Shown in pieces: positions 13,647-14,939 of a DNA stretch of 35,221 bases. The DNA is from an uncultured Gammaproteobacteria bacterium. GTDB lineage: Bacteria > Patescibacteriota > Patescibacteriia > JACQSD01. The stretch covers positions 1-35,221 of the forward strand of contig CAYHPG010000001.1 of NCBI GenBank assembly GCA_964358625.1, written 5' to 3'. The position numbers and the translations under genes are program-made. The notes beneath the pieces are model-generated. The model had not been told where the DNA came from. It saw nothing but the letters and a program-made list of their open reading frames with translations, and did not search any database. Positions within the stretch are counted from its first letter, which is position 1. Each line of letters starts with the position of its first letter.

Positions 13647-14939
13647 CTACATGCGCCCCCGGATAATTCCCTCGCGCAACCGCCGCATAAGCGTCAAATA
13701 AAACGCGATATTGTGGATTGAAGCCAGACGAAGCCCGAGCATTTCGTTTGTGCGAAGAAGATGCCGAACATACGCGCGCGAGGTTGTCCGACATGTCATA
13801 CAATCGCATGTTGGGTCAATGGGTTTTCTGTCAGTAGAAAATTTTTTATTTTTAATGTTGATGCGTTCGTAAAAATCGCCAATGGGTGTTTCTTTTTTCC
13901 AAATATACAATGCGCCATGCCGCGCATTGCGTGTCGGGATCACGCAATCAAACATATCAATGCCAGAGTACACTGCTGCAACAATTTCCTCCGGCTCCCC
14001 CACTCCCATAAGATACCGTGGCTTATTCTCCGGCAAAAGTGGTTCAACAGTTTTCAAGATAGCAAACATATTCTTCCGCGGCTCCCCCACTGCCAACCCT
14101 CCAATCGCATACCCGTCAAACGGCAATTGCGTTAAAAACTTCGCACTCTCTTTTCTTAGATCCGGATAAACGGATCCTTGGACGATGCCGAAAAGGAGTT
14201 GACGAATAAAGGTCGGATCTACTGCTTTTCCCGCATCCGACAATAGCGGAGGTTTCGATGAAAGTGCAGTCAGGTCGGAGGCGATGGGAAGCCGTGAGCT
14301 TGAGTGCGGTTGTTGCGGCGCGCTCACGTAGGGTTCCCGCGCCGAGACCGACTGACTTTCCCGAAACCGCAGCGTGTCGGAGATGGGAAAACAGTGGAGC
14401 CGACGCCGCGCATAGTGCACCGACCGCTCTGCCCACACATGTGTCCGCCGCATCGCCTCACGCGCCTCATCCTTCGTTGCCGGATACCCAATACACTCAT
14501 CCAAGACCATCATAATATCGCTCCCCAAATCACGCTGAATATCGACAACGCTCTCCGGCGTGAATGTGTGTCGTGTGCCATCGCGCTCCGAACGAAACAC
14601 CACGCCACGATCATTAATCTTTTTTCGAAACGATGTTGCAAGTGAAAAAACTTGATATCCGCCCGAGTCTGTCAAAATCGGCCTGTCCCACCCCATGAGC
14701 CCATGCAAGCCACCAAGTTTTTTGATACGAGAAGGCCCGGGCTCCAAAAACATGTGATACGTGTTTGAAAGAATAATTTCTGCGCCAAGCTCTTTTAATT
14801 CACTGACACTCACATTCTTCACTGCTCCGCGAGTCGCAATCGGCATAAAAAACGGCGTCGCAATATCCCCATGTGCCGTTTCGAGCACCCCCGCCCTCGC
14901 TTTACTCTTTTTGCTTTTCTGCTCAAGAATAAAAGACAT
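13647..14939 (-). CDS. tgt: tRNA-guanine transglycosylase (queuine tRNA-ribosyltransferase) with a roughly 60-aa internal insertion
   Basis: The protein contains [66 protein letters not shown] and a CDCxxC zinc site. The insertion falls between [10 protein letters not shown] and QLLFGIVQG. Confidence 0.9.

Follow-up and report, generated by a model that had tools for sequence, protein, structure and literature searches.

The locus lies in a 35,221-nt stretch of DNA (the window) from a Patescibacteria/CPR genome, G000 (861 kb in 131 contigs, 93% complete, ~47% GC). Positions 13647–14939 on the minus strand hold an intact open reading frame for a 430-aa tRNA-guanine transglycosylase (Tgt), identified from the list of open reading frames and by phmmer. 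Against Tgt chains in the PDB the protein matched with E = 1.5e-110 (phmmer), and the match fell into two blocks, query residues 9–174 and 248–429 corresponding to residues 11–174 and 188–360 of the Zymomonas mobilis Tgt chain. The N-terminal part (residues 1 to ~177; 14410–14939, minus strand) ends with a long helix at 156–182, and the C-terminal part (residues ~245–430; 13647–14207, minus strand) opens with a strand at 248–253 (LLFGIVQG); both are predicted by AlphaFold2 with pLDDT > 90. The loop between the blocks has 73 residues, compared with 13 in the solved Z. mobilis enzyme, an excess over canonical Tgt that had already been reported in a reading made from the sequence alone (the sequence-only reading). 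The sole Pfam domain of the protein (P0001) is PF01702. In a 120-sequence alignment the catalytic residues D91, D147 and D328, together with Q254/G255, and the zinc ligands C378/C380/C383/H409 (the CxCxxC...H site) were invariant or nearly so, and the protein has the TIM-barrel fold, catalytic Asp residues and zinc site of a bacterial Tgt (PF01702). Its closest named relatives all come from Patescibacteria/CPR.

The additional DNA at 14208–14409 encodes roughly residues 178–244 and is a copy of a palindromic repeat on the minus strand, co-oriented with tgt, as delimited by cmsearch with the covariance model R1 described below. These limits lie within a few bases of the ~190-nt insertion (14211–14399) proposed in the sequence-only reading. 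The segment is 60% GC, and GC content over 14250–14450 is 0.60–0.63 compared with 0.46–0.49 in the flanks, so that the insert is indeed GC-richer than the rest of the gene; the extra residues are, as had been noted, of low complexity and rich in S, P and L, and they are also rich in A and R. The insert DNA is open in three of its six frames, and the shadow open reading frames described earlier are present at 14116–14436 (minus), 14258–14515 (plus) and 14304–14645 (plus).

RNA and DNA folds of the insert gave a long imperfect hairpin spanning 14212–14404, with outer stems GGTCGGATCTACTG / CAGTGGAGCCGAC, an apex near 14306–14316 and nested inverted repeats. As RNA, the hairpin has a dG of -102 kcal/mol (z = -7.3; none of 200 dinucleotide shuffles was as stable), and as DNA it has z = -6.8; with 193 nt and -0.59 kcal/mol per nt, it is among the strongest long hairpins in G000. 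The element ends in CGGMTCYRYYGC ... GCRRYAGATCCG. The inner left arm (14251–14278, given for the plus strand) holds the block TTTCGATGAAAG, which is kept in 13 copies of the repeat, and pairs with the inner right arm (14342–14368), which holds the family-conserved block CCCGAAACCG...CGTGTCG, as judged from the folds and the copy alignment. These two arms are the 27-nt inverted repeats that had been taken as the ends of the element: the repeats exist, as do the inner stems CGGCGCG / CGCGCCG and GTGAGC / GCTCAC, but they form merely the inner third of the hairpin, and the 118-bp core that they bound is too short to be the repeat unit, which measures ~195 nt. No Rfam family matched in 13500–15100 at E up to 1. 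An intein or a group I/II intron, which had been set aside on the grounds of size, was rejected here too, since the protein contains PF01702 alone with no Hint or intein domain, Rfam gave no match and the insert is a simple 195-nt hairpin.

BLAST and nhmmer searches with the element within G000 returned weak partial copies only, and the family was recognised only after a search of a same-genus genome (G001, a sister species; 94% complete) and the construction of R1 from six copies. R1 matched the tgt insert over model positions 1–195 with 185.7 bits (E = 1e-51), compared with only 36.9 bits for the complementary strand (cmsearch). The inverted-repeat core does recur, as 12 full-length copies in G001 (cmsearch, E = 1e-29 to 1e-55), several of which are 74–80% identical to the element, and as two eroded, shortened copies that accompany the tgt copy in G000 (C35:398–493 and C55:5422–5544). 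R1 found no copies in G002, the only other genome of the family (83% complete), and no further member in 298 other genomes of the class, save one weak partial match (E = 8e-4). The core pattern TTYCATCGANNYNTYCRCTATYRT matched 32 metagenome stretches, none of which fits R1, so we attribute these matches to chance. With matches in G000 and G001 and none in G002 or, that weak match aside, in the 298 class-level genomes, this is a real repeat family confined to one genus.

The copies in G001 are intergenic, and five of 11 follow a real gene of the same strand, beginning 0–12 nt past its stop codon; the genes upstream of these five encode a pilin-like protein, a histidine kinase, a CAP-family protein, a methyltransferase and a DHH phosphoesterase. 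Several of the post-stop copies carry an A/G-rich 3' tail beyond the hairpin. The usual home of the family is DNA just downstream of genes, in gene orientation. Among the intergenic copies, 21 of 33 sense frames are free of stop codons compared with 8 of 33 antisense frames, and a sense insertion within a gene would therefore be fairly likely to remain open whichever frame it is read in.

Past mobility is indicated by a pair of orthologous sites, one filled and one empty. In G001 (C17) an element lies right after the stop codon of a DHH-family gene, and the orthologous site in G000 (C89:~2481–2497) is empty; the G001 copy is flanked by AAGTGGAGGTT / AAGTGGAAGTT, a sequence that occurs once at the empty site. 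These flanks form an 11-bp imperfect direct repeat (p about 0.005 versus shuffles). A 7-bp direct repeat was seen at C47 (p about 0.1), and neither tgt nor the remaining copies showed a detectable one, leaving a significant repeat at only one of the 11 intergenic copies. A second orthologous pair lies upstream of the pilin-like gene, where the G001 copy (C21) is full-length and the G000 copy (C35) is a 96-nt remnant that lacks the apical part. Searches of both genomes for Y1_Tnp, DDE_Tnp_1 and RVT_1 did not find a cognate autonomous element. G001, with its 12 copies, had no Y1_Tnp or DDE_Tnp_1 match, and G000 had three and one, respectively; small reverse transcriptases (RVT_1) numbered three in G000 and two in G001; and copy number was not linked to any of these counts in the two genomes.

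To compare copies we used 13 full-length sequences from G000, G001 and L038, of which 11 are intergenic and L038 occupies the same tgt site in an orthologue. Across this alignment 94.4% of cells at paired positions form standard pairs, and 34 of 53 base pairs have changed on both sides (117 cells in all), covariation values reached by none of 500 shuffles. When the partner was slid by 1–3 columns, paired cells dropped to 40–53% and covarying pairs to 5–12; RNAalifold agreed with the conserved hairpin. The alignment was fitted to R1, which favours structure, though a bias of this kind falls far short of an effect this large. With two invariant G-U columns set aside, G-U and A-C cells were equally frequent (19 versus 19), so neither strand is clearly favoured for folding. 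Judged from this comparison of copies, the hairpin, as DNA or RNA, appears to be what persists, kept by compensatory changes, and not the peptide.

Only two proteins among 5.8 billion, P0002 and P0003, are close to this Tgt; outside the insert they are 81–84% identical to it, and both carry an insert at the same loop. About 36 class-level relatives lack one. The frame through the insert is open, with its length in register, in all three orthologues, which come from three independent assemblies. The insert of P0003 (L038) is a member of the family (R1, E = 1e-43; hairpin z = -4.5), and that of P0002 (L037) is not recognisably so: it is 65% GC, forms no hairpin (z = +0.4) and shows no family similarity, either to R1 with filters off or to any of the 13 copies by Smith–Waterman alignment. 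With neither homology nor a hairpin, the L037 insert gives no basis for regarding it as a decayed copy.

The two tgt-borne copies differ in reading frame. The motifs CGACACGCT and GCTATTGTCGG fall in codon phase 2 in the window and in phase 0 in L038, and BLASTP found no alignment between the two insert peptides; the segment is accordingly not conserved at the amino-acid level, and since the frame through this element differs in an orthologue, the peptide appears not to be selected. It is hard to reconcile this with the idea of a true protein segment peculiar to the lineage, serving as a disordered linker or interaction module and palindromic by chance. That all three clade members have an insert of similar length would suit such a segment, but the inserts have no amino-acid similarity and differ in frame, the same DNA occurs 12 times at intergenic positions in G001, and the predicted structure is disordered; we find this explanation barely credible.

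An unconserved peptide and a compact, very stable hairpin in a coding region could also be taken as signs that the segment never reaches the protein, being removed as an intron-like intervening sequence or skipped by translational bypass. Bypass of hairpins has precedents in T4 gene 60 and in the mitochondrial 'byp' elements. However, an open frame would be unnecessary if the segment were skipped, and it is open and in register in the three orthologues and in unrelated CPR tgt inserts, some of them AT-rich. Given also that no Rfam intron or RNA family and no Hint or intein domain matched, removal or bypass seems highly improbable, and the insert is most likely translated as ~60 extra residues.

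Outside the insert, the flanking tgt sequences of the window and L038 are 74% identical in nucleotides and 81% in amino acids, with third positions at 50%, which shows purifying selection on both halves of Tgt. This bears on the possibility that the insertion inactivated tgt and left a recent pseudogene that is still open by chance. Structured long inserts often destroy genes, and tgt was not found in the G001 or G002 assemblies (94% and 83% complete); its absence there could be a true loss or an assembly gap, and suggests that the lineage may tolerate losing the gene. Against inactivation stand the purifying selection on both halves, the retention of every catalytic and zinc-binding residue, the frame that is open in three independent assemblies and the confidently folded AlphaFold2 core, and we consider a pseudogene improbable. 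From these observations we infer that Tgt retains its enzyme activity despite the insert.

The AlphaFold2 model, run with the 120-sequence alignment, had a mean pLDDT of 86.6, with the core above 90. Residues 185–243 had pLDDT < 50 and no secondary structure, and this disordered segment sits between helix 156–182 and strand 248–253 of the TIM barrel. TIM barrels have their helix-to-strand connections at the N-terminal ends of the strands, on the side away from the catalytic face. The prediction, which had been proposed as a check on the insertion, thus models it as a disordered helix-to-strand connection in a Tgt whose core is confidently folded; the insert most likely forms a disordered loop at the surface of the barrel, on its non-catalytic (N-terminal) face.

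Taken together, it is quite probable that the insert is a copy of a MITE/RPE-type palindromic repeat, non-coding, ~195 nt long and limited to one genus, which lies in frame within tgt and is tolerated as a disordered loop of a Tgt that still functions. One copy would have landed in sense orientation between helix 156–182 and strand 248–253. The net added length is a multiple of three and the sense strand is poor in stops, so the frame would have stayed open. The enzyme would then have carried the additional 60-odd residues as a disordered surface loop while remaining functional and under purifying selection, with the peptide unselected and the DNA or RNA hairpin retained through compensatory changes.

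Several observations sit uneasily with this account. The element of the window and that of L038 are 59% identical, and the persistence of the hairpin inside tgt at ~41% sequence divergence between two lineages exceeds the neutral decay expected of a dead insertion, which gives a hint that the structure is under selection, or that insertion or conversion recurred. A coding region that contains a -100 kcal/mol hairpin might also be expressed less well. The searches returned no cognate autonomous element, and just one of the 11 intergenic copies shows a target-site duplication, with none seen at tgt.

As for the origin of the two tgt copies, they are placed apart in the 13-copy tree, and a topology that unites them is 6.6 log-likelihood units worse (AU p = 0.044). 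This is weak evidence, since the grouping was chosen with the alignment already in view, and the two copies may stem from a single old insertion or from two, or from conversion by other copies.

The hairpin might instead be functional in itself: as RNA or DNA it could tune tgt expression, for instance through ribosome pausing between the barrel halves, an effect on mRNA stability or the binding of a protein, in which case selection would keep it there and the peptide would be a by-product. Between the window and L038, nine pairs have changed on both sides yet remain paired and a further seven carry one-sided changes that preserve pairing; identity is 66% in paired columns and 43% in unpaired ones. 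The strong covariation across the family, the orientation of most copies with their upstream gene, the large excess of the model strand over its complement in score and the presence of unrelated hairpins at the same loop in other CPR tgt genes all speak for such a role. On the other hand, covariation among dispersed copies can reflect the needs of the element itself rather than those of the host, the parity of G-U and A-C cells favours neither strand clearly, and ~36 class-level relatives manage without an insert. The L037 insert, at the same site but with neither a hairpin nor an R1 match, suggests that tgt can dispense with the hairpin. A function for the hairpin in tgt is on balance unlikely, and we favour a tolerated repeat copy.

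Among the best 120 Tgt homologues, the distance from the WA to the LF motif across this loop ranged from 14 to 81 residues and exceeded 30 in ~25. Two long-loop homologues were inspected at the DNA level. The L075 gene (L075:435–1646) contains an in-frame hairpin with a 21-bp stem, GTCACTCTGAGCTTGTCGAAG... / ...CTTCGACAAGCTCAGGATGAC, and the L073 gene (L073:3001–4278) contains, also in frame, several small perfect palindromes including CCTGCCTGCCGGCAGGCAGG; the loop peptides of these inserts include, for example, DVTLSLSKSG...LRQAQDD and LACRQAG...GWSASGG. Inserts at the same loop in both genes indicate that the Tgt loop repeatedly takes up unrelated hairpin repeats.

A more far-reaching reading, which we offer as speculative and rather unlikely, is that the helix-to-strand loop of Tgt is a recurrent landing pad for unrelated hairpins across Patescibacteria, and that the hairpin is either selected or renewed by re-insertion or conversion, possibly through an RNA intermediate in a SINE-like spread served by the small reverse transcriptases of both genomes, to which nothing ties the element. 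Selection or renewal is suggested by the retention of the hairpin in tgt across speciation while the frame changed and by the failure of the tgt copies to group on the tree. The fixed post-stop orientation, the A/G-rich 3' tails and the 11-bp target duplication leave room for an RNA intermediate; if this were true, the family would be a bacterial SINE-like repeat.

The sequence-only reading had likened the insert to Rickettsia palindromic elements (RPEs), and we compared it with these and with other known repeats. RPEs are described as dispersed palindromes, found between genes and in frame within housekeeping genes, where they are surface-exposed and the host protein is apparently functional (Ogata et al. 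2000 Science 290:347, as presented in PMC10969869). The present family shares with them the dispersed 100–200-bp palindrome that forms a long hairpin (193 nt, z = -7.3; 13 full-length copies) and the in-frame position in a conserved gene that is still intact, with tgt open, its catalytic residues kept and its flanks under purifying selection. In RPE-1, the element-derived peptide is conserved and insertions share one frame. Unlike RPE-1, the tgt-borne copies lie in codon phases 2 and 0 and have no frame-conserved element peptide. The family further differs from RPEs in being confined to one Patescibacteria genus, in being GC-rich within a 47% GC genome and in having one clearly intragenic copy among 13 full-length copies. 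The likeness holds as an analogy and a mechanism, an in-frame palindrome in an intact host gene, but not as family membership; sequence homology to Rickettsia RPE-1 to RPE-10 is implausible, given that the 298 other class-level genomes searched have no member of the family.

Miniature inverted-repeat transposable elements, or MITEs, offer a second comparison. Intragenic, in-frame copies are known for ERIC/IRU and RU-1/2/3 of enterobacteria (Delihas 2007, PMC2759123) and for the QMITEs of Coxiella (PMC5896051). Like these, the family is small, non-coding and multi-copy, with terminal inverted repeats, one long hairpin and an occasional in-frame fusion to an open reading frame; its copies would usually be transcribed with neighbouring genes, and sites are filled or empty between relatives. 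It has the outer stems, the ~195-nt length, the 12 copies in G001 and the presence/absence polymorphism of a MITE. It departs from MITEs in that a target-site duplication was seen at one copy only and is, at 11 bp, unusually long, in that no cognate IS or transposase was found in searches for Y1_Tnp and DDE_Tnp_1, and in its marked preference for the first dozen bases past a stop codon, in gene orientation and in some cases with an A/G-rich 3' tail.

REP sequences are palindromes of 20–40 bp whose copy number tracks the RAYT gene. With REP/BIME systems (RAYT/Y1) the family shares GC-rich palindromes that follow genes and are co-transcribed with them, but the element in tgt is five times longer than a REP. 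Membership of this group was rejected because the unit is ~195 nt and because G001 has 12 copies without Y1_Tnp, compared with three Y1_Tnp matches and one full copy in G000.

In-frame selfish palindromes in housekeeping genes have been best documented in Rickettsia, and the same phenomenon is now seen in a size-reduced CPR/Patescibacteria genome and in an enzyme with a solved structure. The three orthologues amount to a natural experiment, in which two lineages have the same element in the same loop in two frames and a third has a non-palindromic insert. They provide a system for asking how much foreign disordered sequence an alpha–beta loop of a TIM barrel tolerates, whether new protein segments can arise from such inserts and why a coding region keeps a hairpin. 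The less ordinary features are that the hairpin has persisted within a gene through speciation while its frame changed, that unrelated hairpins recur at the loop and that the family has a fixed post-stop position. In practical terms, such inserts inflate 'low-complexity' regions and shadow open reading frames in CPR annotations.

Besides many short perfect palindromes, G000 contains two or more further MITE-like families. In the window, a 150-nt MITE-like hairpin at 29226–29375 (dG -90 kcal/mol) has the terminal inverted repeat CTGTGAATTACGAAACTC and G-rich blocks such as GGGAGAGGGTTAGGGTGAGGG; near-identical copies lie at C10:9330–9473 and C54:1217–1363, and fragments of its terminal repeat adjoin the C4 repeats. 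A second intergenic family, of 130–270 nt, has common terminal inverted repeats TGAGMCTGTAGAAAAATG ... CATTTTTCTACAGKCTCA around variable interiors, with sites at C67:3506–3689, C34:3883–4061, C21:1189–1362, C23:4720–4902, C78:2978–3246, C65:1022–1176, C38:3575–3715 and C6:6746–6878.

Perfect 38-nt intergenic palindromes, TGATTCGAAAACCTCACGATCGTGAGGTTTTCGAATCA and ACAAGGGTGCCCCTTGTCGCGACAAGGGGCACCCTTGT, occur in the window at 15633–15670 and 20090–20127, and the first has a diverged copy just upstream of the tgt start (~14998–15037). Dozens of perfect or near-perfect palindromes of 36–50 nt are spread across G000. A palindromic repeat of ~46 nt is found at C55:5605–5651 and at over 20 further sites; these are spread over many contigs and frequently lie close to contig ends, which suggests that repeats break the assembly. 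The Y1_Tnp (IS200/RAYT-like) matches of G000 are at C62:3437–3754, C22:6596–6829 and C75:1740–1961, and these genes are possible mobilisers of the short palindromes. An RVT_1 match of 86 bits lies in the window at 34394–35005 (minus strand), within a 343-aa open frame, and the others in G000 are on C70 and C12; the small size of the reverse transcriptases suggests those of retrons or diversity-generating retroelements.

Upstream of the pilin-like gene, at C35:308–1258 in G000 and on C21 in G001 (L051:751–1758), the element copy lies in a frame that is open in both species from a conserved start, MDKPMKxSPSPRC, to the pilin motif GFSL(V/I)E. The two stretches differ in length by 60 nt, and part of the sequence between the element and the pilin domain is in different frames in the two species; the open stretch may be a long leader or non-coding DNA.
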